Positions 21 through 60,402 of a stretch of DNA of 64,000 nucleotides are shown in pieces. The DNA lies in contig CP070701.1 in NCBI GenBank assembly GCA_020349885.1, positions 32,498-96,497 on the forward strand, given 5' to 3'. Under the pieces are notes generated by a model, which did no database searches, was not told where the DNA came from, and saw only the letters and a program-made list of their open reading frames with translations. Numbering within the stretch: the stretch's first letter is position 1; the number at the start of each line of letters is the position of its first letter. Source of the stretch: Acidobacteriota bacterium (GTDB lineage Bacteria; Acidobacteriota; G020349885). The translations under genes were made by a program, and so were the position numbers.

Positions 21-3000
21 TTACGTGCAGCCGCTTCCGAAGTCCGCAATCAGGGCGTCGAGATCGGCGCCGTCCACGACGCCGCTTGCGTCCACGTCCG
101 AGTCGGCGTTGTAGTACGGGTCGCCGCAGAACTCGCCGAACGCCCGGCCGATGAATCCAAGGTCCATGCCGTCCACGCAGCCGTCGCAGTTAAGGTCGGT
201 GGGGTAGATGGAGCCTGCAGGGGTGCAGCCTGAGGGAGCGCTTGGAATCGCCGGGCAGGCGTCGCACACGTCGCCGATGCCGTCTGAGTCTGCATCCTCT
301 TGCAATGGATTGGGCACCAACGGGCAGTTGTCGCAGGCATCGCTCAATCCATCTCCATCCGTGTCGTCTATCGTCACCGTGTGCGGCGCTGACGTGCTCG
401 TGTCGCAGTCGTTCGACGCGGTAAGCGTCACCGTGTAGGAGCCCTCCGCGGTGTACGTATAACTTGGGTTTTGAAGCGTTGAACTTCCTACGCCGTCACC
501 GAAATCCCACTGCCACGCCGTAGGATTCCCCGTTGAGGTATCCGTAAACGTCACCGGCTGCCCGACGCAGGGACTTGCCGGAGAAAAAACGAGATCGGCT
601 ACTATACCCAGGTTCCCCGACGCAACAAGCGCGAAGTATTGCGTGGGGTTTGTCGTCAGGCCGCCCAGGCCGCACGCGTCTGGAACGGTGACGCTGTTAA
701 TGGCACCCGCTTTTACCTGAATGCTCCACTCTCCCGGAGTGGGGGTTTCAACAAAAACGTTTTCCACATTGTTTTTGCAATCGTTTTCCTTCGTACAATC
801 GAGAAAGAATCCAGTCGGGTTTTTAGTCGAAAACCTGCCATCAAGTAAGCCGACGTTGCCCAGATACTGGTCGCCGGTCGTAAGATCTGTTACAACCAGG
901 TCGAGGTCGTTGATCAGAGGCGTTTTTGCTGGAAGAGCAGCAGGCGGATCCGCCCACACGAGGGAGATCTTTAGCGATCTGAATGAGTCCATCACCCGAA
1001 TCGGATAAGAAATGTCCTCACTTGTGCCCAGGGCCGCTTCCTCGTCCACGATGAAATGGCAGTACCCGACCTCGAACGTTCGTTGAAGGTCCGGCGTTCC
1101 CCATCCCTGTTGATAACGGTTGCCCTGCGTGAAATCATACTGCCGGGCGTTTGCAATGAGAATGGCCTTCACCGTGGCCGCGTGGGGTACGGCCTTCGAT
1201 GAATTGTTGCCGAAGTGATCCTTGATATACATCTCATAGACGAGGCCGCCCGCTCCCGCGATGACGGGCGTGGCGGCACTGGTGCCCTTAAACTCGATAA
1301 AACACTCTTCTGAGATGGGCCCTGTATTCGTGTAATTCCCGTCGCAGAACCCTGCAGCGTTCACCATATCCGTTGTATGTACACGGTCAAAGGGGCCTAC
1401 GAGGTCCGGTTTGACCCTGCCCGCAAAGCCTGCGCATACGAGCTCACCACATGTGCAACCGACCTGACAGTCGCACAAAAAACAAGAGGTGAAACACCCT
1501 GGCGTTGATTTCATGTGACAGAGATAGCAATCAGCGGGGCCCTGGCCTGCCGCGGAAACCTTCGCAAGAACAGGCTGATAACATCCGGAGGTGGGGTTCC
1601 ACTCATCGTCCGTCGGATCGGCGGTATCCATGTGACACATTGCGCCTACCGAAATGCCGTTTTTGTTGGCCGCCTCTCGGGACATTATGCTAATGCCGCA
1701 ATGGCCCTTGTTTCCCATGGCCTGAAACTGCAAGCGATCGTACTCGATAACGAGCCGGTCGATTATCTGCGAATCAATGGAGTAAGCTCCGCTTAGGTCG
1801 GTCTGGTAGCCCCAGCTGTGGCTCTGGAAGAGCGCGCCGGCGCCGAAAGCGTTCACGGCCGCGCCGCAGCGTGCGTCGGCTAAAGTAGGAAACGTATAAA
1901 TAGAATCGAATGCGCCGATTGCTTCGGGCAGCATCCCGCGCGCACCGGGATTCCCCGACCCGTTCCCGAAAAGAATCCCGAAGACAGCCGTTCCGTGACC
2001 TGCAGGTGACGCAAGGTTGCTGAAAACAATTGCTCTGTTGTTGTTATCATCGCAGGGAGTCTGCAAGGGGTCACAAAAATCAGGGTGACTCTCATCAAGC
2101 CCGCCGTCAAGAACCGCCCCGGCAATCCCTTTTCCCGTAAAGCCGCTTGCGTCCAAAGCCACGGCCCCCATGTACTGCGTATCCCGAATGTTGCTCATAA
2201 AGGTGGTCGGCGGCCCGGTTTCTTCGATGAACTCCACCGAAGGAATGAAGGAGATGTCTTTTATGATGGAGGCGTCGACCTCCGCCCGTATGACGAGGTT
2301 CGCCGCTCCGGGCTCCCGTTCGCCCTCCCCTTCACAGGGGCCCAGGAAATCCCCGTGGGCCAAATGGCCGCCCGCATCGGCCTGCGAAATCCTTATGGTC
2401 TTTGCGTTCTTGGGATTCCTCGGCGGGAAGTGGCAAAGCGTGACCTTGTCGCCTGTCTTGACCGGCACGTCGCCCGGACCAAGGATCGTTCCCCCCAGCG
2501 CTTCGACGGCCTCCTTGACTTCCGTTACCGTGGCGTCGGCGTTGCCGAACACCTTTACCGCGATCGTTTGAACTCCCGTGCCTCCGTGAAGCATGCTCTT
2601 ATAGGCCGGATGATAGTGATCCACGAACCGTACAAATGGCAAGGTTTCCACCACAGCCCTTGTGTCCAAGGCCATCCTGACCAGATAGGCCCGCTTCGGA
2701 ACGTAGCCCACGAAATCCACGCCAGCGGCAAGCAAATCGTCGCGGGCCTGCACGGTGATGGTTTCGGTAAGCTGGACCAGGTAATAGCTCCGGTGCTCGG
2801 TGCACTTCAAATCTTCGGGGATGTCGGGCTCTTCCAAAGGCGGGGTGAAGGTTGTCGCCCGCAGAAGGATGGCGTCCTCGCCGACCTCCGCCTGAAAGCG
2901 CGCCGTCTCGTGCGAGAAGGCATTCCCTTTGGAGACAAACGGCCGCTCGCCGCGCGCTTCCGCCTGAAATCCTCGACGCGGGGATTCTTCAGGAAGGCCG

Positions 3001-3191
3001 CGGTTTTTCCGGGCGGTGCGGATGACTTCGTTCATGTCGAAGGGGACGTTGGCTGTCTCGACTTCCCCCCCGACCTTCGGTGGGTCGGGCAGTCTGGCAC
3101 ATGGAACCTCCTGGACGGCTGAGAGTTTACCTCCCCATACGATCGAGACAGCCGCCAGCGCAGAGCCGACCCACGTCACTGCTCCTTTCAT
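21..3191 (-). CDS. Secreted subtilisin-like (S8) serine peptidase with a Cys-rich insert, PKD domain, thrombospondin-type-3-like Ca-binding repeats and a C-terminal dockerin-like module
   Basis: The translation carries the S8 triad motifs [13 protein letters not shown] (Asp), [11 protein letters not shown] (His) and [11 protein letters not shown] (Ser). Downstream are a PKD-like segment ([21 protein letters not shown]...YTYT), [30 protein letters not shown] repeats and a [12 protein letters not shown]...[13 protein letters not shown] dockerin-like tail. A signal-peptide-like [20 protein letters not shown] sits at the internal Met, so I start the gene at 3191 rather than 3278. Confidence 0.8.
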
Positions 3192-3281
3192 TTCCGGTCT
3201 CCTTGCCAACGCTCCATTATAGGTTCTTCGCTCCCGCCCCGGCAAGTCGACCGCGACGGGGCGGCGGCCACGCGGCATGCT

Positions 3282-15670: not shown

Positions 15671-15837
15671 TTGCATTCACCCCCTTTCGTTTTTTGTTAG
15701 GGCCTTTCAGAATAACACTCTTTTTGAAAAAGTCAAGTCTTTTTGTAAAAAATTAATTTTTTTCTTCCGGCACCGCGTCAAAAAACCATAGGAGTATATA
15801 ACCTATGTATAAACATCATATTTCCCTGGAAGAAGGT

Positions 15838-16224
15838 TCAGGTCTTTGTGGTTTTTACGACGCCCGCGGCCATCTTGGCCACCGTCACGATGCCGACGCG
15901 CTGCCAGTCCCGCTCTCCCGCGTAGACGATGTGCAGCGTGTAGCGCAGCTCGGGCGATGCGTCCTGAATCATTTTGATCCATTTGAGGAAAAGCAGAATG
16001 CCGGCGGAATTGAGATACTCGAGTTTCGTGAAATCCAGGCGCACCTCGGAAAAGCCATGCTCCATGGCCTGCTGGTGCACCTGAGTCATGTAGGAGAACA
16101 GGATGTCGGAAGGATCCGGCATGCTGATTTCGCCGACGAATTCGAGCTCGGCGCCTCCCTCGATTTCCTTGGCGTGAATCTGAATGTCTTCCTGGCTGAA
16201 GTTCGAAACGGAAAATTTGCTCAC
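15838..16224 (-). CDS. STAS-domain (anti-sigma-factor-antagonist-like) protein, hypothetical
   Basis: A 128-aa protein with an LDFTKLEYLNSAGILLFLKW segment resembling the SpoIIAA/STAS core. This is a weak family-level call. Confidence 0.4.
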   Translation of the reverse strand: MSKFSVSNFSQEDIQIHAKEIEGGAELEFVGEISMPDPSDILFSYMTQVHQQAMEHGFSEVRLDFTKLEYLNSAGILLFLKWIKMIQDASPELRYTLHIVYAGERDWQRVGIVTVAKMAAGVVKTTKT

Positions 16225-16485
16225 GGCTTTATCCTCCTATAGTTCAAAGCGGTGCATCATAGCACAACCCGCTGCGTCGGCGCTACCTCCCGAGTCGAGT
16301 CATCCGGGCTCTTGCCGTAGGGAGTACCGTCTTGAAGTCGGGAATGGAGCGTTCTCGGTTTCGTCGAAACGCGTCGCGGGCTTGCTCGCCAGCCTGCCCC
16401 TCCGGGGCCCGCGGAAAAGTTGCCTGCTTTTCGCGTTTCCTTTATCATGCATCGTCCCGACTGATGACGGGGGGCAATTCTTATT

Positions 16486-20917: not shown

Positions 20918-20952
20918 CAACGTCGGCGGTGCGCGGATAGAGTGGTATATAG

Positions 20953-21023
20953 GCGGCGTAGCCAAGTGGTAAGGCAAGGGTCTGCAAAACCCTCATTCGC
21001 CGGTTCGAGTCCGGCCGCCGCCT
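20953..21023 (+). tRNA. tRNA-Cys (GCA)
   Basis: Cloverleaf by eye: acceptor GGCGGCG/CGCCGCC, D-arm GCCAAGTGGTAAGGC, anticodon stem-loop GGGTCTGCAAAACCC (anticodon GCA), T-arm GCCGGTTCGAGTCCGGC, discriminator T. No CCA is encoded. Confidence 0.85.
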
Positions 21024-21143
21024 CTCTCCTCCCCTAAACCGCCGAGGCCGTCAAGGGCTTTTGTTCCCCCTTTTTTTGCTTCCTTGCCGGAGCCCCATGG
21101 GTAACTTGCAAGCCGTGTCCTCATGTGTATCATGAGGCACGCT

Positions 21144-21572
21144 ATGGCGGAGAGAAAGCCATACCGAGTGTTGGACCACACCGCCGACATCGGTCTGGAA
21201 GCGCATGGCCAGACCCTGAGAAAGCTTTTCGAGAACGCGGCGGCGGGTTTCTACGCCCTTCTGGTCAAGGGCGGCGACGTGCGCACGCGCCAGACCGTCG
21301 AGCTCTCGATCCGCGCACACGACATCGAGGCGCTTTTTGTGCGCTTTCTCCAGGAGCTCAACTACCTTTACCAGACGCAGCGCCTTGTGGGAGGCCGCGT
21401 CGAGGTGCATAACATAGAGGAGCGGACGCTGCACGCCTCGGTGAGGGGGGAAACGCTCGACCCGCAACGCCACACCGTCCTGCGCGACATTAAGGCCGTG
21501 ACCTACCATGGGCTCACGCTCAAAAAGGTGAGAAAGAAGAGCTGGAAGGCCACCGTGCTCTTTGACGTGTAG
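21144..21572 (+). CDS. Archease family protein (activator of RtcB-type RNA ligase / tRNA-modifying enzymes)
   Basis: The N-terminal LDHTADIGLEAHG and C-terminal DIKAVTYHGLTL...ATVLFDV are hallmark archease motifs. Length is about 143 aa. Confidence 0.8.
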   Translation: MAERKPYRVLDHTADIGLEAHGQTLRKLFENAAAGFYALLVKGGDVRTRQTVELSIRAHDIEALFVRFLQELNYLYQTQRLVGGRVEVHNIEERTLHASVRGETLDPQRHTVLRDIKAVTYHGLTLKKVRKKSWKATVLFDV

Positions 21573-21665
21573 GGCCGGCCGTAGCCTTCTTCCACGTCTC
21601 ATGCTATAATCCCTTTTCTATCGGCAAAACTCGTATATGGACATGCTTCTGCGAAAGGAGCCCAC

Positions 21666-22760
21666 ATGACCACCCCCGCAGCCGAAAAGGCGAAAGCTTC
21701 GGAAAAGCGCGGCGCGCCGGCCGCGACGGGCGATAAACATAAGAAGGTTGTCGAGACGACCGTCTCCCAGATTGAGAAGCGCTTCGGCAAAGGCTCCATC
21801 ATGCGCCTCGGCGACGACGTGCGCGTGGAGGTTCCGAGCATCCCCTCGGGCTCGCTGATGCTTGATTATGCGCTGGGAGTCGGCGGCTACCCGCGGGGGA
21901 GGCTCGCGGAAATTTACGGCCCCGAGGGTTCCGGGAAAACCACGCTTGCCCTCCACGCCATCGCGGAGGCGTACAAGGCGGGCGGTGCCGCCGCGTTCGT
22001 GGACGCCGAGCATGCGCTCGACCCCGTGTACGCGCGCTCGCTGGGCGTCAACACGGACGAGCTCCTCGTCTCTCAGCCCGACCACGGCGAGCAGGCGCTC
22101 GAGATTGCAGAGATGCTCCTGCGGAGCGGCGCGATGGACATCGTCGTCGTGGATTCCGTGGCGGCCCTCGTGCCCCGCGCCGAACTCGAGGGAGAAATGG
22201 GAGACTCCTTCATGGGACTCCATGCGCGCCTAATGTCGCAGGCCATGCGCAAGCTGGTCGCCATCTTTTCGAAGTCCAAGACGTGCCTCATCTTCATCAA
22301 CCAGATACGGGAAAAGATCGGCGTCTTCTTCGGCAATCCGGAGACGACGACGGGCGGCCGCGCCCTCAAGTTCTATACCTCGGTTCGCGTAGAGGTGCGC
22401 CGCAAGGGCCTTATTCGTGAGGGCCAGGACACCGTCGGAAACCGCACCGCGGTCAAGGTGGTCAAGAACAAGCTGGCGCCGCCGTTTCGGCAGGCGGAGT
22501 TCGATATTCTTTACGGGAAGGGCATCTCGCGCGCGGGAGAAATCATTGACTTTGGAATGGATTTGGGCCTGGTGGAAAAGGCAGGCGTCTGGTTTTCCTA
22601 CGGCGAGACGCGGCTGGGACAGGGCCGGGGGAACGCCGTGCGCTTTCTGCAGGAGAATACCGACGTGGCGGACGACCTTACGTCCAAGATTCGTGAGCAG
22701 CTGAGCACGGCGAGGCCCCGCGTCGTGGGCGCCTCGGGTAGTCATGCGGACGATTTTTAA
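21666..22760 (+). CDS. recA: Recombinase RecA
   Basis: Canonical RecA sequence ([12 protein letters not shown]...[39 protein letters not shown]; [19 protein letters not shown]). Confidence 0.97.
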
Positions 22761-24753
22761 GCTCGTCCTCGCCTTTGCTGCGCTGGGGGTTTTTCCTCAG
22801 TGGGCGCTGGCCCAGGAGGAAGCGCCCGCCGAGTCCGAGCCGCCCGCCCCGGCCCCGTTGGTGCAAACGTGCCCTCCGCCCCGCATCGTGCTCCACAGCC
22901 CATCGCTCCTCCTGCGACGCGCCCCCACGACCATAACGCTCCATGCCCTCCGCCGCGACGGAATGCAGAAAGGGGCGTTCCAGGGAACGGTGGCGCTGGA
23001 GGGGTTCTATCGGCGCGATCCGGAAAACCCCGCGGTCAGGATTCCCATTGAGCAGGCCAAATTCGCAGAGGGCGAAGCCGTGCTCGAAAAGGCGATGGTC
23101 ACAAGGGTCCCACTCGCGGCGCAGGGCGAGCGGCTTGAGGCGCGGATTCTCCCCGGCTGGGTTTCGCTTCTTCCGCCGATTCTGGCGATCGCGCTCGCCA
23201 TCGCGTTCCGCCAGGTCATTATGGCCCTCGCGTTCGGAATTTACCTGGGCGCCTTCTTCGTGGAGGGGTTCGACCCGTTCCGGGCGCTTCTTCGTGTGGC
23301 GGACAAGTACGTGCTCGACACCGTTGCCCACGATCCCGGCCACGTCCACGTTATCTTTTTCACTCTCATGATCGGGGGCATGGTGGCGGTCGTAAGCCGC
23401 TCGGGCGGCACGCAGGGAATCGTGGACGCCGTGTCGCGGCACGTCCGCTCCGTGCGCACGGGACAGGTTTCGACGTGGGTGCTGGGACTTTTGATCTTCT
23501 TCGACGACTACGCGAACACCCTCATCGTGGGCAACACCATGCGCCCCTTCACCGACCGCCTGCGCGTCTCGCGCGAGAAGCTTTCCTACATCGTGGACAG
23601 CACGGCCGCCCCCGTCGCATGCGTGGCCATCATCTCCCTTTGGATCGGCATGGAGTTGGGCCTCATCGGGGACTACAAGGAATCCATTGACGGCGCCTTG
23701 GCCAGCGTGGGAATCAGGTCCCCGGACGTGTACGGTATCTTCATCGCCTCCATCCCGTACAGCTTCTACTGTCTTCTGACCCTTTTCTTCGTTTTTGTGG
23801 TCGCGGCCACGCTCCGCGATTTCGGCCCCATGCGCCGCGCCGAGGAGCGCGCCCATGCAACGGGCGAGGTGCTCCGCCCCGGCTCGGTGCCGCTTTCCGA
23901 CAAGGAGCTTTCCATGCTCGAGGCCCCCGAGGGCAAGCCGCGGCGCTGGGTGAACGCGGCCGTTCCTATAGGGGGGCTCATTTTATTTACCATCGTGGGG
24001 CTTTACGTCACCGGCAGCCAGGCGCTGGGAAGCGAGGCAAAGAATGTCGGATTTGTGGAGATTTTCGGGGCGGCCGATTCATTCAAAGTCCTCTTGTGGG
24101 CGGCGTTCGGCGGAGGCCTCCTCGCCGTGGTGCTGGCGGTATCCCAGCGAATTCTTTCCCTGGAAGAGGCGCTGCGGACGTGGGTGACGGGTATAAAATC
24201 CATGGTGCTCGCGGTCATCGTCCTGCTGCTGGCATGGTCGTTGGGGGCCTTGTGCAAGGGCGAGATGCTGACGGGAAGCTATCTGGTGGAAGTCTGCCGC
24301 GACGTCCTGCCGCCGAGCCTGCTGCCGCTGCTCGTCTTTCTTTTGGCCGCGGGCATCTCGTTCGCCACGGGCACCTCGTGGGGCACGATGGCCATTTTGT
24401 TCCCCGTGGCTATTCCCATGGCGTGCGTGTTCATCGGAGAGGGGGGCGTTTCGCCCGAGAGGGCCGCGCCGATCCTCTATGCCACCATCGCGGCCATTCT
24501 GTCGGGCGCCACGTTCGGCGACCACTGCTCCCCCATTTCCGACACGACCATCCTGTCCTCCATGGCCTCGAGCTGCGACCACATTGACCACGTGCGCACC
24601 CAGATCCCTTACGCGCTGACGGTCGCGGGCGTCGCCGCCTTTATCGGCTACCTTCCCGTTGGCTTAGGCGTCCCCGTCTACGTGAGCCTCGTGGTGGGCG
24701 CCGCCGTTCTCGCGGCGGTGGTCTATCTTGCGGGAAAGCCCGTGGCACGCTGA
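22744..24753 (+). CDS. NhaC-family Na+/H+ antiporter-like membrane transporter with N-terminal periplasmic domain
   Basis: A signal peptide and a roughly 150-aa soluble domain precede a polytopic NhaC-like core ([41 protein letters not shown]). Confidence 0.65.
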
Positions 24754-24880
24754 CGGGTTTAGGCGGCGCGGTTGGGGCTTTGCCCCGGACGGCTTGCAGG
24801 TGCCTTTTTCAGAAAAAACCGAGAACAAAGAGAAGATGCTCCTCGAGGCGGTCAAAAAGCGGTTGTGAAAAGGAAGGGGT

Positions 24881-26797
24881 ATGGTGTACTTCATTTTGTT
24901 CTTTTCTTCAATCTTTCTTGTTGGCTTCACGGCGGTCGTTTTAACATACCGTCCCGTTCACTCTAAAAATCTTCCTGTCCTTTACGGAAGCGTCGCCGTT
25001 GGAAACGCGCTATCCGTATTTTTGCTTAATGGATTGTGTTACGGGATAGGCGTGGAAGGCGGCATGTGGGCCGCACCTGCAATGGGATTCGCTGTCTTTG
25101 CTTTGGCCTGGATGGCTTCTGGAAAATTTCGTGAAGAAACCAGGGCCATTTGGCGCCGTCTACAGGAAAAGACGGGGGCAAAGAGGAATCAGCAATACGG
25201 GGTCCTGTTTGCGGGGATTCTCATCGTGGGGTTCCTTGCGGCGATTGCCTTCTTTACGACCAGGCATGATGCAGAGGCCCACCATGCGCAATTGGCGACC
25301 ATTAGCATGGGGAATTTTCCGGCGATGTTTCCCTTTCAACCAGACCTCTCTCTTTTCTACCATTATGGCTTCGCACTTTTCGCGGCCTTTCCCTTTCGCG
25401 CGACGTCTTGGGATATAAACATCGTGGAGGACCTGTGCTTAACGTGGATCATGTTGGGCGCGGTACTGTCGGCGGTCAATTTCGTGAAAGTTTATTTTTC
25501 CGCCCGGCGAAAGGCTCAAATTATGGGATTGCTTTTTTATTTTTTCGGATACGGCCCTCTTGGAATTTGCGGCTTATTGTATTTTACGGGATTTTTTTTG
25601 GAGTGGCTTCCCGAGGTCTTGGGGCCCATTTCCGTGCTTTCTTATTCCAATTCATTCCTGCGCCGGGCGCCTGCCATGGCCTATGCAGTGCTGCCGACGT
25701 TCTTGTGGATGTTGCATCGATTCTGGGACACCCGCAAGCCCTGGCCTGCAGGACAGGCCTTGCTCCTGGTGGGCATTATGGCTTCGTTTGGGCTGCTTGC
25801 TGAGGAGGTGCCCATAATCACAGGGGCGGCAATCGTTTTGGTAGGATTGAAGGATTGGCTTAAGGGGCATATGCCTCTTACGAAGGTTGTGGTTTTGGGG
25901 GCGTTCTTGCTGCTATCGCTGCTTCTATGTCTGGGGCAGGGAGGTATGCCCACTTACGCCGCCCGCGCGCTGATCCAAGGTTCGGGGGAATTGGTGCCTG
26001 AGATGCAATCGGTCAAGCACTTTAACATAATATGGCCGCCCGGGGTGCCCGCGTACACGGGATACGGCCATGCCTTTTCTCCCACGCTCTGGCGCGTTTT
26101 GTTGTTGGAATTCGGCCCTCTGTTTCTGTTGTTCCCATACTTCTTATGGCCGGGGCGAGATTCATTCCGACAGCTGATCTATACGATGTGCTGGATCGGG
26201 TTGCTTGTTCCGGCGTTTTTCACGTGGGGGCAAACCTCGTTCGATATGCAGCGGTTCTCGCAGATCTCCCTCTATCTGGCGTATCTGTTTGCCGGACGAT
26301 TTTTGGCGGATGTCTTGGAGGCAAGAGTTGCTTCTCGCCGCCTTCGGACTCTGGGATATGTCGCCTTAGCGGTGTTTGTGACGCTGACGCCTGTTCTCCA
26401 TGGTGCGCATCGCATCGCAAGAAAGCAGACCCATGTTTGGGTGGCCCATGAAGCCGAGGCCATCGTGCAAGACGCGAAAATGTATATTCCTCCTTTAAGT
26501 CGCGTCGTAACCTTGGCGCGCTTAAACTACCCCTTGCACCGTGAAGGCTATTTCGCGCTTTACGATACCCCTCCCGATCTATTTTATCTAACCGGTATGC
26601 TGAGAGGCCGACACGACGCTTCGCTTGAAAAACTCTCGCGTGAGAAATGCTTGGATTGGCGACCGGATTTCCTCCTGGTGCCTTTTCGGGTAGCGGAGCA
26701 TTTTCAGAAAACAGTGCCCGAATCCAGGGCCACGCCTCTTCGCACGTATATTTACAAAGGAGAACCCCTGCATTTGATAAAGATCGATTTCCCCTGA
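24881..26797 (+). CDS. Large polytopic membrane protein (possible GT-C-fold glycosyltransferase-like), hypothetical; in low-GC island
   Basis: A 638-aa ORF with 12 or more predicted TM helices and a C-terminal soluble domain. It has no catalytic motif I can name. Codon composition is markedly lower-GC than flanking genes. Confidence 0.5.
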   Translation: MVYFILFFSSIFLVGFTAVVLTYRPVHSKNLPVLYGSVAVGNALSVFLLNGLCYGIGVEGGMWAAPAMGFAVFALAWMASGKFREETRAIWRRLQEKTGAKRNQQYGVLFAGILIVGFLAAIAFFTTRHDAEAHHAQLATISMGNFPAMFPFQPDLSLFYHYGFALFAAFPFRATSWDINIVEDLCLTWIMLGAVLSAVNFVKVYFSARRKAQIMGLLFYFFGYGPLGICGLLYFTGFFLEWLPEVLGPISVLSYSNSFLRRAPAMAYAVLPTFLWMLHRFWDTRKPWPAGQALLLVGIMASFGLLAEEVPIITGAAIVLVGLKDWLKGHMPLTKVVVLGAFLLLSLLLCLGQGGMPTYAARALIQGSGELVPEMQSVKHFNIIWPPGVPAYTGYGHAFSPTLWRVLLLEFGPLFLLFPYFLWPGRDSFRQLIYTMCWIGLLVPAFFTWGQTSFDMQRFSQISLYLAYLFAGRFLADVLEARVASRRLRTLGYVALAVFVTLTPVLHGAHRIARKQTHVWVAHEAEAIVQDAKMYIPPLSRVVTLARLNYPLHREGYFALYDTPPDLFYLTGMLRGRHDASLEKLSREKCLDWRPDFLLVPFRVAEHFQKTVPESRATPLRTYIYKGEPLHLIKIDFP

Positions 26798-26909
26798 TGC
26801 ATTGCGGAGAGCGGAAAACATTTGACGGTTGCTCATAAGGTTGGCAACGTTTTTTGCCTATAAGGGCACGGCTCGCAAGCAAGCGCAGAATGTTTCGTGC
26901 TCCTCGTAG

Positions 26910-26915
26910 TATAAT
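26910..26915 (+). promoter_or_regulatory. Perfect TATAAT -10 element upstream of the M1-like peptidase gene (weak -35)
   Basis: GTAGTATAATGA lies about 165 nt upstream of the ATG at 27079. It is preceded by a GTTGC...GCAAC hairpin plus a T6 tract at 26826-26856, a possible terminator for the preceding gene. Confidence 0.3.
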
Positions 26916-27078
26916 GATTCCGGGAGCAAAAGAGTAAAGGCCTGGCAAACAAGCCCTGCGATGAAAATTTTCTTTCTAATGCTTTATCGCGGCAAGATGC
27001 GTTGAAAACGCCCGTCCCATCGGCTACCATAGTCGCGTGCCGTTCCTAGACATAGACACCATAAGCAAGGAGACAACG

Positions 27079-29790
27079 ATGATTCGCAAACGCATGCTTT
27101 GCCGAACCGGTATCCTTTTTGCCGCCGCCGTCGTTTTGGCGGCCTTTTCCACGCCCGCTCAGGAAGGGGCCAAGAGCGACCTGGAGCGCCTCTACGGCGA
27201 GTTCAACGAAATTTCTCTCGATACCTCCCAGGGCTTCGCCGTCAAGAATTTTCTGCTCGAGCACGACAGCTTCTCCGCGAAGCTCGAGGACGGAATCATT
27301 TTCTTTTCAAACAAGATCGGCGGCCAGTTCTACGCCGCCGTTTTCTTGGGCAAGGGGGAGATGACTCTACGCATCCCCGAGCCCGTCAAAGACATGCAAT
27401 TCAGAAATATCCTCTGGGGGCGGGAGAGTGAGGACCCCTCAAGGAAGGGAATCAAGGGCCAGCCTTTTACGGAAGCCTTCCTTGTGGTGCCGCCGGACAT
27501 TAAGGCGCCGGTCAATTACGAGCTTCTTTCCGGAAAGTTCAAGATACCCGGCTCGGAAGTGGCGGCGGTTACGGAAGGCGGGCTTCTCGAAAAGCACAGC
27601 GAGCGCGCGCAGGAGCTTTTTGCGCAGCAAGCGGGCCCTCCGGACTGGAGGGAGATTCCCGTGAGAACTATGGTATGGCGCCATTTGAACAATTTCACTA
27701 ACGAGTATTTCGAATTCCGGGCGAACACCAAGGATTTTCAATGGGTGCGGTTTCTATTTAATCCGGACTTCGAGCGCGAGTGCCGTGCGGGGCGCATCTC
27801 CTATGAAGCGGCCTATGGACGCCAGCAAGTGATTGAAAAAGGAGGCGTGTCATGGGATCGCCGGAAAGACTATCGACAAGCGGAGGGCGGCTGGACGGCG
27901 AACCTGCGCGAGCGCCTACACGAAGACAGGCGCACCGTCGAGATTTTTCATTACGATATGGGCATCACCGTTGAGAAGGCGGCTTTGCTTCTCAAGAATA
28001 AGATGACGATGCGTATCCGGCCGCGAAGAGAGGGAGCACGCTGCGCAAGGTTCGACTTCCTCTCACATTGGCAAGACGATAAGCGCAAGGCCTTTCTCAT
28101 AAAGAAATGCACGGGTGCCGAGGGAAACTCCCTTCCCTTTTTGCACGACAAGGACGAACTCTTAGTGGACATGGGAAAAACCATGGAGATAGAAAAAGAT
28201 TACAGCATTACTTTGGAATACGAAGCCAAATTTATCAAGCCACTCGACAATATCGTCAAACCGGATTCGATCGATCCCGTTGAGTGGCAAAGAATTCTTC
28301 AAGATTTCTTGCAATTCTTACCAGCCCAGCCCTCCACGCATACTCTTCTCAACACCTACCCGTGGTACCCCCAAGCAGGCGGCATGGAAAACGAAGCCAC
28401 CTACGATGTCAAAGTCAGAGTGCCTTTCGAATTTATTGCTGCGGCTTCCGGGCACACGGTAGAACGCTGGCAGGAGGAACCCGATTACGAGTGCCTGCAT
28501 ACGCGGCTCGATAAGCCGGTGAGCTTCTTCGCCATTATTTTCGGACGCTATCAGATGCTTTCGGGGAAGTTATACGGCGAGGAGAAAAGCCGGGCCGAGG
28601 CGTATGACGACGAGGAAGAGGAGGAAGGGGAAGAGGATGAAGAGATAAACGTAGAGGAATACGCAAAGAAATGGGGCGATCCCACTATTTACGTCTATGC
28701 GCTTGACCGTCAGCAACGAGCGCTTCCCGCCATGCTGGACAAGGCGCGCAACATGCTTCACTATTATAACGAATTTTTTCAAAGGCCCTTTCGCTACGAG
28801 GAATTGGACATTGTTCAAATGGGTTTCTTTATGGGGTTCGGACAAGCGCCTCCGGGACTGGTGCAGCTTACGGGAGAAGCTTTTCTGCGTCAAACAGAAC
28901 TTGCTGCCCACTTTGAATGGATAGATCCCGGATTTCTCGAAGGCTTCCTTGCCCATGAGCTGGGTCATGAATGGTGGCCGGATATCACGGGCATGCGCAA
29001 CTATGAACAGGACGCGTGGTTGAGCGAGGGATTTGCGGAGTATGCGTCGGGGCTTTACTTGGAGAACACCAATGGCTTTAAGGCCCTATGCGAGGACGCT
29101 GAGGCGCAGTGGCTCAAAGTAGGGGGCTACGGAGGAGGAGGAATCCTTGACGTAAAACCTTACGAACAAGGCTCCATCTACTCTCCCGGGGCGAGCTACG
29201 AAACCCAGGTGTATCAAAAAGGCCCCTACGTTCTCCACATGCTCCGTAGCATCCTCGGCCCAGAGCTTTTCCAGGCGCTTCTGCAGCGGTTTATGAAAGA
29301 TTTCGCGGGGAAACAGCCCGTGACGCCCGACTTCATTGACACCGTCAGGAAGGTCATCTTCGAATATGTGAAGGGCGATCCGTTTAAGACCTACCGTGAA
29401 AACGGAACACCGTTATCAGAGTGGTCGCCGGCGCACCGGGACGAGTTCCTCCGCATGGGCGATTTCTACAAGAATCTCGACGCCTGGTTCGAGGACTGGT
29501 ATATCGACCCGGGCCACGCGGAGATCCACTTCTCGTGGAGCGCGCAAAAGGACACCGAAAAGGGAGGTTACGTTTTTACGGGCCGCATCCGGCAGGACCC
29601 CAAGGAATTCAAGATGGTGCTCGCGCCCATCATTCTGCGCTTCAAGAAAGATTCGTCGCTCGTGCGGTTCTTTGTCGATAAACCGGATTACGAATTCCGG
29701 CGACGCGTTGACAAAGAGCCGACCGAAGTGGTCTTCGACGAATTCAAGATGCTCGCGGCCGAGGTGACGGTTGAAGCGGCTCAGCCGTAG
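27079..29790 (+). CDS. Secreted gluzincin (M1-like, MA-clan) zinc metallopeptidase, atypical
   Basis: The Zn-binding motif HELGHEWW...(19)...EGFAEYAS has the HEXXH-X18-19-E spacing of the M1/gluzincin family, but I found no recognisable GAMEN exopeptidase motif. An N-terminal signal peptide (ILFAAAVVLAAFSTPAQE) and an acidic DDEEEEEGEEDEE stretch are present. A strong SD (AAGGAG) lies before the ATG at 27079. Confidence 0.7.
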   Translation: MIRKRMLCRTGILFAAAVVLAAFSTPAQEGAKSDLERLYGEFNEISLDTSQGFAVKNFLLEHDSFSAKLEDGIIFFSNKIGGQFYAAVFLGKGEMTLRIPEPVKDMQFRNILWGRESEDPSRKGIKGQPFTEAFLVVPPDIKAPVNYELLSGKFKIPGSEVAAVTEGGLLEKHSERAQELFAQQAGPPDWREIPVRTMVWRHLNNFTNEYFEFRANTKDFQWVRFLFNPDFERECRAGRISYEAAYGRQQVIEKGGVSWDRRKDYRQAEGGWTANLRERLHEDRRTVEIFHYDMGITVEKAALLLKNKMTMRIRPRREGARCARFDFLSHWQDDKRKAFLIKKCTGAEGNSLPFLHDKDELLVDMGKTMEIEKDYSITLEYEAKFIKPLDNIVKPDSIDPVEWQRILQDFLQFLPAQPSTHTLLNTYPWYPQAGGMENEATYDVKVRVPFEFIAAASGHTVERWQEEPDYECLHTRLDKPVSFFAIIFGRYQMLSGKLYGEEKSRAEAYDDEEEEEGEEDEEINVEEYAKKWGDPTIYVYALDRQQRALPAMLDKARNMLHYYNEFFQRPFRYEELDIVQMGFFMGFGQAPPGLVQLTGEAFLRQTELAAHFEWIDPGFLEGFLAHELGHEWWPDITGMRNYEQDAWLSEGFAEYASGLYLENTNGFKALCEDAEAQWLKVGGYGGGGILDVKPYEQGSIYSPGASYETQVYQKGPYVLHMLRSILGPELFQALLQRFMKDFAGKQPVTPDFIDTVRKVIFEYVKGDPFKTYRENGTPLSEWSPAHRDEFLRMGDFYKNLDAWFEDWYIDPGHAEIHFSWSAQKDTEKGGYVFTGRIRQDPKEFKMVLAPIILRFKKDSSLVRFFVDKPDYEFRRRVDKEPTEVVFDEFKMLAAEVTVEAAQP

Positions 29791-29827
29791 TTCTGAAACC
29801 GTACGCACGGCATGCCGAAGAAAGAGA

Positions 29828-31417
29828 ATGGAAATCTTTAGAGTAATTTTCCCGCGGGTCTGCCGACTGGTCGGAGCGGCTGGGCCGAAGCATGGGCGGC
29901 CTTCCCGGCGGTTTTCCTTCATCCTGGCGCTCGTCCCCGCCCTTGTCTTCGTCCTCGCCGGCCCTGCCGCCGCCCGGGCGCCGGCTTCCTTTGTCCCTTC
30001 GGAGCTGCTGGAGGAGGACTGGTACGCGCTCTCGTGGAACGGCCAGCACGCGGGCTACATACATTCCGTGGCCGAGCAGGGGCGCGACTCAGGGAAGCGG
30101 GAGTGGATCCGCAGCCGGACGAGGGTGGAGATGGCGCTCTCGCGCATGGAGATGGAGATTCGCGTCACGATGGGAGGGGAGCTCTGGGAAGTTCCCGGCA
30201 AGGGCCTGCGTACCTTTTCGTTCGTGATGCAGATGGGCCCGCTCGGGGAGATGCGCTACGCGGGCGAGCGCAAGGGCGACGTGTTGCGCATCACGGGCAC
30301 GTCGGCAGGAAAGTCCTACGAGCGCGAGATTCCCTGGCAGGAGGGAACGCTTTCGCCCTTCGAGGAGATGCGGCGCTTCCGGGAACGCTTTCGAGAAGGC
30401 CGCAAGACGTTCTCCCACATGGTGTTCAATCCCGAGCAGCAGCGCGCCATGGTGACGACTTACACGCTGGAGGAAGAGGAAGAGGTTTCGCTTTTGGGCG
30501 CGCGCAAGCGTCTTCTGCGTGTGCGCGTGGAGCAGGACATTCTGCCCGGCGTCGTCTCCTACGCTTGGGTGGACAAGGAGGGTCGTATACACAAGATGCT
30601 CCTTCCGATGGGGGGGCTCGCTACGGTCGAGGCGGTACGGACCACGAAGGAGCGCGCGATGTCCCCCACGGGGCCCGCCGAGGTGCTCGCGCAGACGCTC
30701 CTTGTGCCCGACGTGCCCGTGAAGAACCCGCTCAACGCCACGCGCATCGTCTACCGCATCGGCTTTCGCGACCCGGAAAAGATTCCCTCCTTTCCCCCGG
30801 ACGGCCGGCAGACCGTGCGCGTCCGGAAGGGCTCGGTTCTCACGCTCGAGGTGAAGCGCCCCGAAGCGCCACCCCGGGCGCGTGGGGAAGAGTCGGCGCC
30901 GCCAGAGGAAAAATACCTATCTCCGAACCCTCACCTTCAGTCGGACGACGAGGCGCTGCGCAAAGTCGCGGCCGAGGTCACGCGCGACCAGAGGAGACCC
31001 TGGGAGAAGGCCTCGGCGCTCACGCACTGGGTCTACCGCCGTATCGAAAAGAAGGACCTGGGAGTGGGCTTCGCTTCCGCGAAGGACGTGTTCGAGAATC
31101 CGCGCGGCGACTGCACCGAGCATGCCGTGCTCCTTGCGGCCATGCTTCGCGCCGTGGACATTCCATCGCGCGTGGCCGCGGGGCTCGTCTACTCGCCCGT
31201 GCTCGGCGCGTTCGGCTACCACATGTGGACGGAGGCTTTCGTCGAAAACAAGTGGCATGCCCTCGATGCGATGTTCGACGAAACGCTCCTCGATCCCACG
31301 CATTTGAAGTTCACGGACTCTGCGCTCGACGAGGGTATCGACCCCGCGTTTATGAGCGAGTTTATTGCGTTCCTTCAAAACATGGAAATCAGGATCGTCA
31401 CGGTGAACCATGAATAA
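29828..31417 (+). CDS. Transglutaminase-like cysteine-protease-superfamily protein, secreted/membrane-anchored
   Basis: A C-terminal transglutaminase core Cys-His-Asp triad context is present (NPRGDCTEHAVLLAAMLRAVDIPSRVAAGLVY...GYHMWTEAFVENKWHALDA). The N-terminus has a hydrophobic signal/TM segment (FSFILALVPALVFVLAGPAAARA). The start is ambiguous between 29771 and 29828. Confidence 0.7.
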   Translation: MEIFRVIFPRVCRLVGAAGPKHGRPSRRFSFILALVPALVFVLAGPAAARAPASFVPSELLEEDWYALSWNGQHAGYIHSVAEQGRDSGKREWIRSRTRVEMALSRMEMEIRVTMGGELWEVPGKGLRTFSFVMQMGPLGEMRYAGERKGDVLRITGTSAGKSYEREIPWQEGTLSPFEEMRRFRERFREGRKTFSHMVFNPEQQRAMVTTYTLEEEEEVSLLGARKRLLRVRVEQDILPGVVSYAWVDKEGRIHKMLLPMGGLATVEAVRTTKERAMSPTGPAEVLAQTLLVPDVPVKNPLNATRIVYRIGFRDPEKIPSFPPDGRQTVRVRKGSVLTLEVKRPEAPPRARGEESAPPEEKYLSPNPHLQSDDEALRKVAAEVTRDQRRPWEKASALTHWVYRRIEKKDLGVGFASAKDVFENPRGDCTEHAVLLAAMLRAVDIPSRVAAGLVYSPVLGAFGYHMWTEAFVENKWHALDAMFDETLLDPTHLKFTDSALDEGIDPAFMSEFIAFLQNMEIRIVTVNHE

Positions 31418-54533: not shown

Positions 54534-55754
54534 CTATTCATTATCAAATACCCATCCGGCACTCACAGTGGCCACGGAATAGTCGAGTTGACTTTCTTTG
54601 CCGCTATCGAAGTCCAAGTCGACGCCGTCTACGTGGAGATAACGAACGTCGGGGCGGAGATAAAAATTCTCCCACAGAAAAATCTTGGCTGCAGCGCCAA
54701 GATGTAGCGTCAGAGAACTCCCGAGATCTACTGGTTCTTTGTCGGGACCGGGGATGCCCAGCTCGAAGTCGACGCCCTCTATTTCCGACTCGGTGCTGCC
54801 TATGACGCCGATGCCGCCTAGCAAAAGGAAGTTAAATTTTCCGGACGGATTGAGACGGAAAACGGTACTCGCATCGAGGCCCATAACATTCACGTCATCG
54901 CTGCTTGAAATGCTGCTTGAACCCAGATCTATAGTGGCGGCGAAATCCGCGGTAGAGCCCCAAAGCTGGCCTTCCAGCCCCCAGTGTTTCGTGAAAAACC
55001 CACCTAAGCGAAGATTGGCGGCAAGGCCGCTTTCGATTTCTTCTTCTACGGGTATTCCTAGGAAGATGCCGTTGTCGCCGTCCCCGGTGAAATAACCACC
55101 ACCGATTTCAAAGTACTTTTCGTCAAAAAAAGACGATGGATTCCTCAGCCGCGCTCCCGCCGTTAGGGTAACGCCCAGGTCCTCGAGTCTTTTATCAATC
55201 ACCCAGTGCATCTGGGCGTCGAAAGGAAAGGTCCAATTTTCGCCTACCCGGAGCGACGCGCCAAACCCGGCATGGGGGCCGAAGTGGAAAACCTGAGCAT
55301 CTTCCGGGTCGTCGCCGGGGGCCAAGACCGGGTCTATCTTGTACGCCCCCAGCCCTACGAGGACGTGGGGGTTGAACCGCTTGCGCTGGCCGCGAGCAAC
55401 CAGGCTCATGGTTACGTACCATTTGATGTTGAAATCAATGTCCTTCCACAAGTCCTCCATTTCATTGATGGAGCCGTCACCATCGTTGTCAAACGCATCG
55501 GTACAATCGGACTCACCGCAGATAATCTCCTCCACGAAGTCGGTTTCGATGGTTCCCAGTGTGAAGCGGAACGCCAATTTCGAGCCGGTGTGGACCTCCC
55601 AGTTGAAGTTCGTCACCCATCCGTCATCGACGTTGGCGTCGCTCGCCGCAAAGTAACCGCTGCTCACACCCACGTCGTGCTGAAGATCCACTCCGCGCGC
55701 TTGAAGCGCCAGAAAGATGGCAAGCGCCATGAAAACGGCCGTGTTGCGTCTCAT
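54534..55754 (-). CDS. Outer-membrane beta-barrel (porin-like) protein, hypothetical
   Basis: A signal peptide (VFMALAIFLALQA), alternating amphipathic beta-strand patterning throughout and a C-terminal aromatic-rich end are present. A DNDGDGSINEMED EF-hand-like loop is also there. Confidence 0.4.
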   Translation of the reverse strand: MRRNTAVFMALAIFLALQARGVDLQHDVGVSSGYFAASDANVDDGWVTNFNWEVHTGSKLAFRFTLGTIETDFVEEIICGESDCTDAFDNDGDGSINEMEDLWKDIDFNIKWYVTMSLVARGQRKRFNPHVLVGLGAYKIDPVLAPGDDPEDAQVFHFGPHAGFGASLRVGENWTFPFDAQMHWVIDKRLEDLGVTLTAGARLRNPSSFFDEKYFEIGGGYFTGDGDNGIFLGIPVEEEIESGLAANLRLGGFFTKHWGLEGQLWGSTADFAATIDLGSSSISSSDDVNVMGLDASTVFRLNPSGKFNFLLLGGIGVIGSTESEIEGVDFELGIPGPDKEPVDLGSSLTLHLGAAAKIFLWENFYLRPDVRYLHVDGVDLDFDSGKESQLDYSVATVSAGWVFDNE

Positions 55755-60231: not shown

Positions 60232-60402
60232 CGTATAAGGTTCTCTGGGCCGGTGATTGCAGCCCAGAATTATTATGGTTTAACTTATCCAAAGGGAAGG
60301 TTGCAATTCAAGGAAACGATGGCTTTCCCCGGTGCTCTTTGCCGGATAAATTGCGCGTAAGTGTTGTGGATAAAGAGGAAAACATATTTTTTCGAAATGG
60401 GG

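Follow-up and report, generated by a model that had tools for sequence, protein, structure and literature searches.

The DNA analysed here is a stretch of 64,000 nucleotides (the window) from a closed Acidobacteriota metagenome-assembled genome (MAG) with a 2.4-Mb contig, whose genes carry locus tags of the JSV08_ series. About 5 kb of this window, from position 24754 to 29800, stand out by a low guanine-plus-cytosine (GC) content, and a first-pass annotation made from the letters alone had interpreted this interval as one block of recently acquired DNA. The analyses described below favour, with moderate confidence, a different picture, in which the interval belongs stably to the Acidobacteriota chromosome, is not mobile and holds two genes, each of them compositionally atypical in its own way. 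As initially described, exactly two large genes are found there, both on the + strand and both annotated as hypothetical proteins. The first (24881 to 26797; UCF80905.1, JSV08_00315) encodes a polytopic membrane protein of 638 amino acids, for which a glycosyltransferase of the GT-C fold is predicted, and the second (27079 to 29790; UCF80906.1, JSV08_00320) encodes a secreted M1-type zinc metallopeptidase of 903 amino acids that lacks the GAMEN motif.

The interval has a GC content of 0.534, compared with 0.641 in the remaining window, and is the lowest 5-kb segment, about 8 standard deviations below the others (mean 0.642, standard deviation 0.013). In 1-kb segments the values range from 0.61 to 0.68 on either side and from 0.51 to 0.58 between 25 and 30 kb, and in 200-bp segments GC falls at about 24750 and is back up at about 29800, both at gene boundaries. 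The sharp drop reported in the first pass is therefore real, as are the stretches of around 43 % GC (200-bp minima of 0.435–0.45), but the flanking genes do not reach the 68 % attributed to them, with values of 63.6 % for recA, 64.6 % for nhaC and 64.3 % for the transglutaminase-like gene. The suggested checks of GC, of GC at third codon positions (GC3) and of tetranucleotides all proved the interval atypical. GC3 is 0.60 in the first gene and 0.67 in the second, compared with about 0.80–0.85 in recA, nhaC and the transglutaminase-like gene; the dinucleotide delta* of the interval is 88 versus 39 ± 14, and its tetranucleotide z-scores correlate with the rest of the window at 0.45 versus 0.79 ± 0.05. 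Moreover, the GC contents expected from the amino acid sequences of the two proteins and the codon preferences of the host are 0.618 and 0.597, well above the observed 0.527 and 0.544, so that most of the deficit is synonymous.

The two genes do not, however, share one codon signature. The relative synonymous codon usage (RSCU) of the peptidase gene correlates with that of the pooled typical genes at r 0.88, a value equally found for its paralogs, and amounts to a diluted host preference. In contrast, the GT-C gene is the most codon-atypical of the window, with r 0.49 to the host and 0.51 to the peptidase gene, and at third positions it is rich in T and poor in C (A.15, C.26, G.34 and T.25, versus.07,.47,.38 and.09 in the host). 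Its best RSCU match (0.63) is its own 36 %-identical homolog on a contig of 53 % GC, which has a near-identical third-position profile. Membrane localisation is not the cause of this usage, since the adjacent and likewise polytopic nhaC gene matches the host at r 0.98. As for the peptidase, a 61 %-identical paralog encoded elsewhere in this genome (L001), together with a further copy on contig L003, shows a GC content of 0.48–0.60 inside flanks of 0.64–0.70. Three further genes of the window are codon-atypical, with GC3 values between 0.54 and 0.68: an S8 subtilase with PKD and TSP3 domains (21–3278, − strand), an open reading frame (ORF) of 145 amino acids without family match (15805–16242, + strand) and an outer-membrane beta-barrel protein (54534–55754, − strand). 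Low GC3 seems to mark envelope and secreted genes generally in this genome. The idea of a single island is not supported by these data: the interval is a pair of neighbouring atypical genes in a genome in which a group of envelope and secreted genes is atypical.

The age of the arrangement can be judged from one close relative, the only one found, which is a 12.7-kb contig (L002) from a different metagenome (JGI 3300041077) with about 93 % nucleotide identity to the window. Its gene order, pdxA-archease-recA-nhaC-GT-C-peptidase-transglutaminase-orf-tdh, is that of the window, and it shows the same dip, with a GC content of 0.51–0.58 inside and 0.62–0.69 outside. Whether recA and nhaC are elsewhere followed directly by the transglutaminase-like gene, as had been proposed for inspection, is answered in the negative for L002, which carries both genes in between; with this one relative compared (dS about 0.2), the site is occupied and no empty site was seen. 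The nucleotide identities are 93.2 % for recA, 94.2 % for nhaC, 93.7 % for the GT-C gene, 86.5 % for the peptidase gene, 90.8 % for the transglutaminase-like gene and 86.8 % for the ORF of 322 amino acids that follows it. Nei-Gojobori estimates of the synonymous divergence (dS) and of the ratio of nonsynonymous to synonymous divergence (omega) were 0.22 and 0.12 for recA, 0.12 and 0.17 for nhaC, 0.18 and 0.19 for the GT-C gene, 0.33 and 0.22 for the N-terminal part of the peptidase gene, and 0.20 and 0.34 for the transglutaminase-like gene. The window and L002 copies of the GT-C gene have GC3 values of 0.60 and 0.62, respectively. Both genes have therefore kept pace with their neighbours in divergence, with purifying selection acting on them and a low GC content in both lineages, and because L002 shares the site, the dip and the flank-like dS they must have been in place before the split. 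In three of the eight L002 genes (pdxA, nhaC and the peptidase gene) the reading frame is broken by frameshifts when compared with the window; these more likely represent sequencing or assembly errors than pseudogenes.

The membrane protein was characterised mainly through its fold. A single-sequence AlphaFold2 model was unusable (predicted local distance difference test, pLDDT, of 41), whereas the model built with an alignment of 11 sequences reached a pLDDT of 77.6 and a predicted TM-score of 0.82. When this model was compared by Foldseek with the PDB, the top 19 matches were all GT-C glycosyltransferases (AftA, STT3/OST, PglB, DPY19, ArnT and AftD), and it displays the features of that fold, namely a multi-transmembrane core, long extracytoplasmic loops and a soluble C-terminal domain. 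The alignment reveals a set of conserved residues comprising D130, H134/H135, G144-N-x-P147, Y160-H-Y-G, Q353-G-G, E410-x-G-P, R426 and R458, the first four of which (near-invariant or invariant columns, with N145 within the third) form a conserved loop encoded at 25259 to 25369. Loops rich in lysine and arginine are found at residues 24–30, 80–105 and 206–212, and from their positions the D130...YHYG and QGG loops are placed on the opposite, presumably periplasmic, side of the membrane. D130, nearly invariant and in this predicted periplasmic loop, would be the candidate catalytic acid. By its modelled fold and by analogy with the family, the protein may thus be a lipid-linked-sugar-dependent glycosyltransferase working at the outer face of the inner membrane, which fits the early guess of a glycosylation role.

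The protein resembles the GT-C superfamily, which includes mycobacterial AftA, ArnT, PglB/STT3, PMT and the ALG mannosyltransferases, in being polytopic, in its soluble C-terminal alpha/beta domain and in the conserved acidic residue of a long predicted periplasmic loop. It departs from the solved enzymes in sequence, with 7–13 % identity to any of them, and the detectable members of its family number about a dozen. Searched exhaustively with HMMER, 1.84e9 representatives yielded 12 proteins at E <= 1e-3, the closest being a partial protein of the same lineage (P0002, 83 % identical) followed by others at 37 % and 34 %; a third, word-indexed homolog search with the GT-C profile gave nothing beyond close relatives, and a metagenome scan with a reduced GT-C alignment found no relative. 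The distant homologs, at 20–27 % identity, belong to Anaerolineales and Dehalococcoidia MAGs of the Chloroflexota and, in a further likeness to the superfamily, sit in glycan-synthesis clusters with genes for GT2, GtrA-domain and GT4 proteins, an epimerase, a DegT aminotransferase, a methyltransferase and an ABC-2 transporter. Unlike in those clusters, no GT2 or GtrA genes for donor synthesis lie near the window copy. The nearest curated sequence family is Pfam DUF2298 (PF10060), which one distant homolog alone passes (P0015, 31.0 bits versus a cut-off of 27.8) over a region that spans the conserved loop. The gene of the 34 %-identical homolog (P0012, L086 1219–3803) directly follows lspA, which encodes signal peptidase II (Peptidase_A8), with overlapping stop and start codons, an arrangement that may point to some connection with lipoprotein maturation.

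The start of the peptidase gene is most likely the ATG at 27079, behind the sequence AAGGAGA, which gives the 903 amino acids of the NCBI entry; the 917 residues of the first-pass annotation correspond to the maximal ORF from a GTG at 27037. Read from the sequence, the N-terminal MIRKRMLCRTGILFAAAVVLAAFSTPA resembles a signal peptide. The catalytic domain matches Pfam PF01433 with 77.1 bits (cut-off 27.7) over profile positions 3–206 of 218, and searches against PDB sequences retrieve ERAP1, IRAP and ERAP2 at about 1e-9, with the catalytic domain alone aligning. On the other hand, the NCBIfam equivalogs for PepN and LTA4H score 24–44 bits, versus cut-offs of 591–762, and no Pfam domain was found in residues 1–534 or in the last 136 residues. 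The zinc site (28954 to 29043) has been confirmed as HELGH followed by 19 residues and a glutamate within WLSEGFAEY, one residue over the canonical X18 that is seen in a distant member of the family (P0007). This site, the distal Glu and the catalytic Tyr are kept in the alignment with ERAP1, where the Tyr of VYQKGPY (29209 to 29229) falls on that of YDKG. The reported absence of GAMEN was also borne out, since GFGQAPPG (28834 to 28857) aligns at that position with a Gln in place of the Glu, and family members at 21–27 % identity have GQ[AS]xP there. The GAMEN Glu is thought to bind the free N-terminus of the substrate and to underlie exopeptidase activity (PMC13039773). Because this anchor is absent, a classical aminopeptidase role would have been lost, and with all catalytic residues present in both the window copy and L002 the protein is, judging by its motifs, probably an active secreted zinc peptidase that is not a classical aminopeptidase.

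With the M1 zinc aminopeptidases (PepN, ERAP1, IRAP and LTA4 hydrolase) the protein shares the thermolysin-like catalytic domain, the HEXXH motif with its distal Glu and the transition-state Tyr. It differs from them in GFGQA for GAMEN, in X19 for X18, in some 530 N-terminal residues that hold no recognisable domain, in having no detected C-terminal domain of the ERAP1_C type, and in its signal peptide and an acidic low-complexity insert, DDEEEEEGEEDEE (28606 to 28644), which precedes the catalytic domain and is absent in the paralogs. Comparable cases of an M1 core in a non-canonical architecture are two-domain or atypical bacterial M1 peptidases such as PDB 6a8z ('zinc metalloprotease, putative', 474 amino acids). 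A precedent for M1 enzymes that cut internally is given by the bifunctional endo/aminopeptidases AplP and NosP, which retain GAMEN (PMC13039773). The window peptidase differs from these two in lacking that motif, it is much longer on the N-terminal side than such M1 relatives, and no gene cluster for ribosomally synthesised and post-translationally modified peptides lies nearby.

Several observations concern the relatives of this peptidase. In the paralogs on L001 (135–2657; JSV08_10015) and L003 (1388–3979) the HELGH motif is replaced by HQLAH and HHLAH, respectively, which removes the catalytic Glu but leaves the zinc ligands in place, and a deletion extends across the GAMEN-equivalent region. 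Both seem to occupy the same locus in two relatives, with a downstream CitMHS transporter gene that is 95.5 % identical at the nucleotide level; the paralogs themselves are 73–80 % identical in nucleotides and 63 % in amino acids, about as distant from each other as either is from the window copy, which points to very fast evolution or allelic replacement. The peptidase family as a whole diverges faster than the neighbouring genes. At the locus of a distant GAMEN-less M1 member (P0009, L170 3–5395), whose genome has a GC content of about 71 %, another M1-like gene lies upstream in tandem and a radical-SAM gene follows downstream. Four nhaC loci, from MAGs of Salinibacter, Bacteroidota and Ignavibacterium (L021, L033, L061 and L068), have an M1 peptidase gene at a constant distance of about 4.5–5 kb downstream of the nhaC homolog; these are probably ordinary aminopeptidase N genes in a conserved synteny unrelated to the arrangement in the window.

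Taken on this basis, the stable chromosomal piece could be explained as follows. The GT-C gene would most likely derive from an old horizontal acquisition from a lineage of lower GC content, and its product, if it works like other enzymes of this fold, would move a sugar from a polyprenyl-phosphate-linked donor onto an acceptor at the periplasmic side, with the conserved loop (D130, HH, GNFP and YHYG) carrying the GT-C chemistry. The peptidase gene would belong to a lineage-restricted and fast-evolving family that is low in GC wherever it is sited in these genomes and that has a diluted host codon preference. Both genes were already in place when two species-level relatives separated (dS about 0.2), and purifying selection keeps them both. 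A number of points weigh against this account. No donor lineage was identified, the nearest homologs outside the genus being 36 % identical for the GT-C protein and 25 % for the peptidase, and the low GC3 could come from weak expression or relaxed codon selection rather than from a foreign origin, especially in the peptidase family. The age is bounded by one split, and the search for further loci added none: a scan of the GTDB species representatives with nhaC gave a best identity of 52 %, in other phyla and with no synteny information, and a metagenome scan with the transglutaminase-like protein gave one 1.2-kb fragment at 73 % and otherwise matches at <=54 %, mostly about 30 %, with the genes of the interval in none of these loci. 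As to the membrane protein, it has no Pfam match even at E <= 1 and no NCBIfam match, hence no curated family, and its profile has no match at E <= 10 among PDB sequences; the predicted GT-C fold rests on the model from 11 sequences with its pLDDT of 77.6. Furthermore, in characterised GT-C enzymes the long conserved periplasmic loop follows the first transmembrane helix, unlike the conserved loop of the window protein, which comes after the fourth predicted one.

The alternative that best withstands the data, although unlikely for the pair as a whole, is that no horizontal transfer took place and that both are native lineage-specific envelope or secreted genes, whose low GC3 would stem from weak expression, from relaxed codon selection or from fast evolution. 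For the peptidase this is plausible: its gene correlates with the host at 0.88, its paralogs at another locus are equally low in GC, its family diverges faster than the neighbours, and a distant homolog in a genome of 70–76 % GC (L004) also lies about 8 points below its flanks. The other atypical genes of the window, among them the subtilase with PKD domains and the outer-membrane beta-barrel protein, agree with such an origin. It is less so for the GT-C gene, which is far from host usage (r 0.49, third-position T of 0.25 versus 0.09) while the polytopic nhaC is typical, which evolves at a normal rate under purifying selection, so that relaxed selection is an unlikely cause, and whose family is almost absent from the 1.84e9 representatives, with its distant homologs in Chloroflexota. 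For that gene, an old acquisition remains the preferred reading.

Whether the two genes work together is a separate matter. It had been proposed that membrane protein and peptidase could form a functional module. The transferase would, for example, glycosylate the secreted peptidase or its substrate, or the pair, possibly with the transglutaminase-like protein, would remodel a surface polymer. Adjacency on the same strand, still observed in both relatives, the action of both products outside the cytoplasm and a gap of just 37 bp between the peptidase and transglutaminase-like genes speak for it, but between relatives this close a conserved adjacency carries no information. Besides their different codon signatures, the two genes are separated by a spacer of 281 bp (26798 to 27078, GC 0.49) with indels relative to L002 and with a conserved promoter-like site of its own. 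About 90 bp of it beside the peptidase start are conserved in L002 and hold TTGAAA-17-TACCAT (27002–27030), the sole promoter-like match in the spacer; in the whole interval 3 such matches were found versus 2.8 expected. The signals emphasised in the first pass fared worse. The TATAAT at 26910–26915 is present, but it has no −35 partner, and lies within a segment deleted in L002, and the terminator-like hairpin after the first gene (about 26828–26853) is no more stable than shuffled sequences (z −0.62) and also lies within an indel absent from L002; both were rejected as functional signals. Moreover, none of the five other peptidase-homolog loci examined (on L001/L003, L004, L170 and L171) has a GT-C neighbour, and no peptidase neighbour is visible at the GT-C homologs outside this lineage, which sit in polysaccharide clusters or behind lspA. 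The pairing is thus seen in this lineage alone, and a module appears improbable. An equally faint chance is given to a broader version, according to which an undescribed and extremely rare GT-C family, with its catalytic loop after the fourth transmembrane helix and a protein or envelope acceptor in Acidobacteriota, would constitute with the GAMEN-less M1-like peptidase, and perhaps the transglutaminase-like protein, a new system for the modification and processing of cell-surface proteins.

The initial reading of the 5 kb as one young island, with a composition not yet ameliorated, has become highly unlikely. Real features speak for it, namely a strongly atypical GC, GC3 and oligonucleotide usage with sharp edges and a very narrow distribution of both proteins. 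The interval is also alike to classical genomic islands (tRNA-associated, integrase-bearing and repeat-flanked) in its sharp compositional borders and in its accessory-type content of envelope and secreted genes. Against a recent arrival speaks L002, which has the same genes at the same site with the same dip, a flank-like dS and the same GC3, and against a single one speak the codon signatures. Unlike classical islands, the interval is syntenic in the one relative available and internally heterogeneous, and it carries no integrase, tRNA junction or direct repeats, as the first pass had already seen. Pfam and NCBIfam searches gave no integrase, transposase or other mobility domain in the interval or the neighbouring genes; the sole tRNA, tRNA-Cys at 20952–21024, lies 3.7 kb upstream, beyond archease, recA and nhaC; the flanking repeats are merely short, imperfect and chance-level matches; an Rfam search of 24000–30500 had no match; and plasmid and viral searches returned nothing for the GT-C protein and generic M1 catalytic-domain matches alone for the peptidase. 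The first description of the interval as accessory DNA that looks foreign in its composition and bears no mobility signature stands. Finally, an assembly or binning artefact, in which a foreign fragment was joined into the contig of what is after all a metagenome-assembled genome, has a negligible probability: a chimera is ruled out because L002, an independent contig spanning both junctions, has the same order and dip, and the junctions lie in short intergenic regions with conserved gene-proximal parts.

The surroundings of the two genes are those of a core chromosome, with mreBCD, PBP2, mlaEFD, gidB, mscS, queC, pdxA, tRNA-Cys, archease, recA and the NhaC-family antiporter gene in the window. 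This last gene, for a Na+/H+ antiporter (22744 to 24753, + strand; Pfam PF03553, 5.6e-59; GC 0.646, GC3 0.82), forms the left flank. Its maximal ORF of 669 amino acids overlaps the recA stop codon by 17 nucleotides (22744–22760), and its N-terminal 185 residues or so are 88 % identical to L002, compared with 96 % elsewhere; translation may in fact begin further downstream. The left edge of the dip falls in the intergenic region from 24754 to 24880, of 127 bp here versus 65 bp in L002, in which conservation with L002 is limited to about 50 bp beside the start codon, including the ribosome-binding site AAGGAAG. The right flank is the transglutaminase-like gene (29828 to 31417, + strand; Pfam PF01841, 3e-19; GC 0.643, GC3 0.82), which from its ATG at 29828 encodes 529 amino acids, the same as its L002 ortholog, and which is followed by the 322-residue ORF, tdh and kbl. 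With respect to the window at large, the cumulative GC skew has its minimum at about 21000–24500, just left of the dip, and rises steadily to the window end. A replication origin at this minimum (about 21–24 kb) was considered as the cause of the change in composition and rejected, since no DnaA-box cluster occurs there; no dnaA gene was seen in the window. Two DnaA-box-like 9-mers, one of them the perfect TTATCCACA, are found on opposite strands and 80 bp from each other at 60285–60373, in a stretch of locally low GC (0.585 at 60–61 kb), and the whole window contains 10 DnaA-box matches with at most one mismatch versus 3.1 expected.

For the organism and its families, these results provide working assignments for two proteins annotated as hypothetical, a predicted GT-C-fold glycosyltransferase and a secreted M1-type metallopeptidase without the aminopeptidase motif, which belong to well-known superfamilies as new members or as divergent variants. 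No open question is affected by either assignment, and envelope genes of atypical composition are frequent in high-GC bacteria. The case is of more general use as a caution for the calling of genomic islands: a sharp GC dip amid housekeeping genes need be neither recent nor a single insertion, for here two neighbours deviate, apparently each for a reason of its own, and the inheritance of both has been stable.

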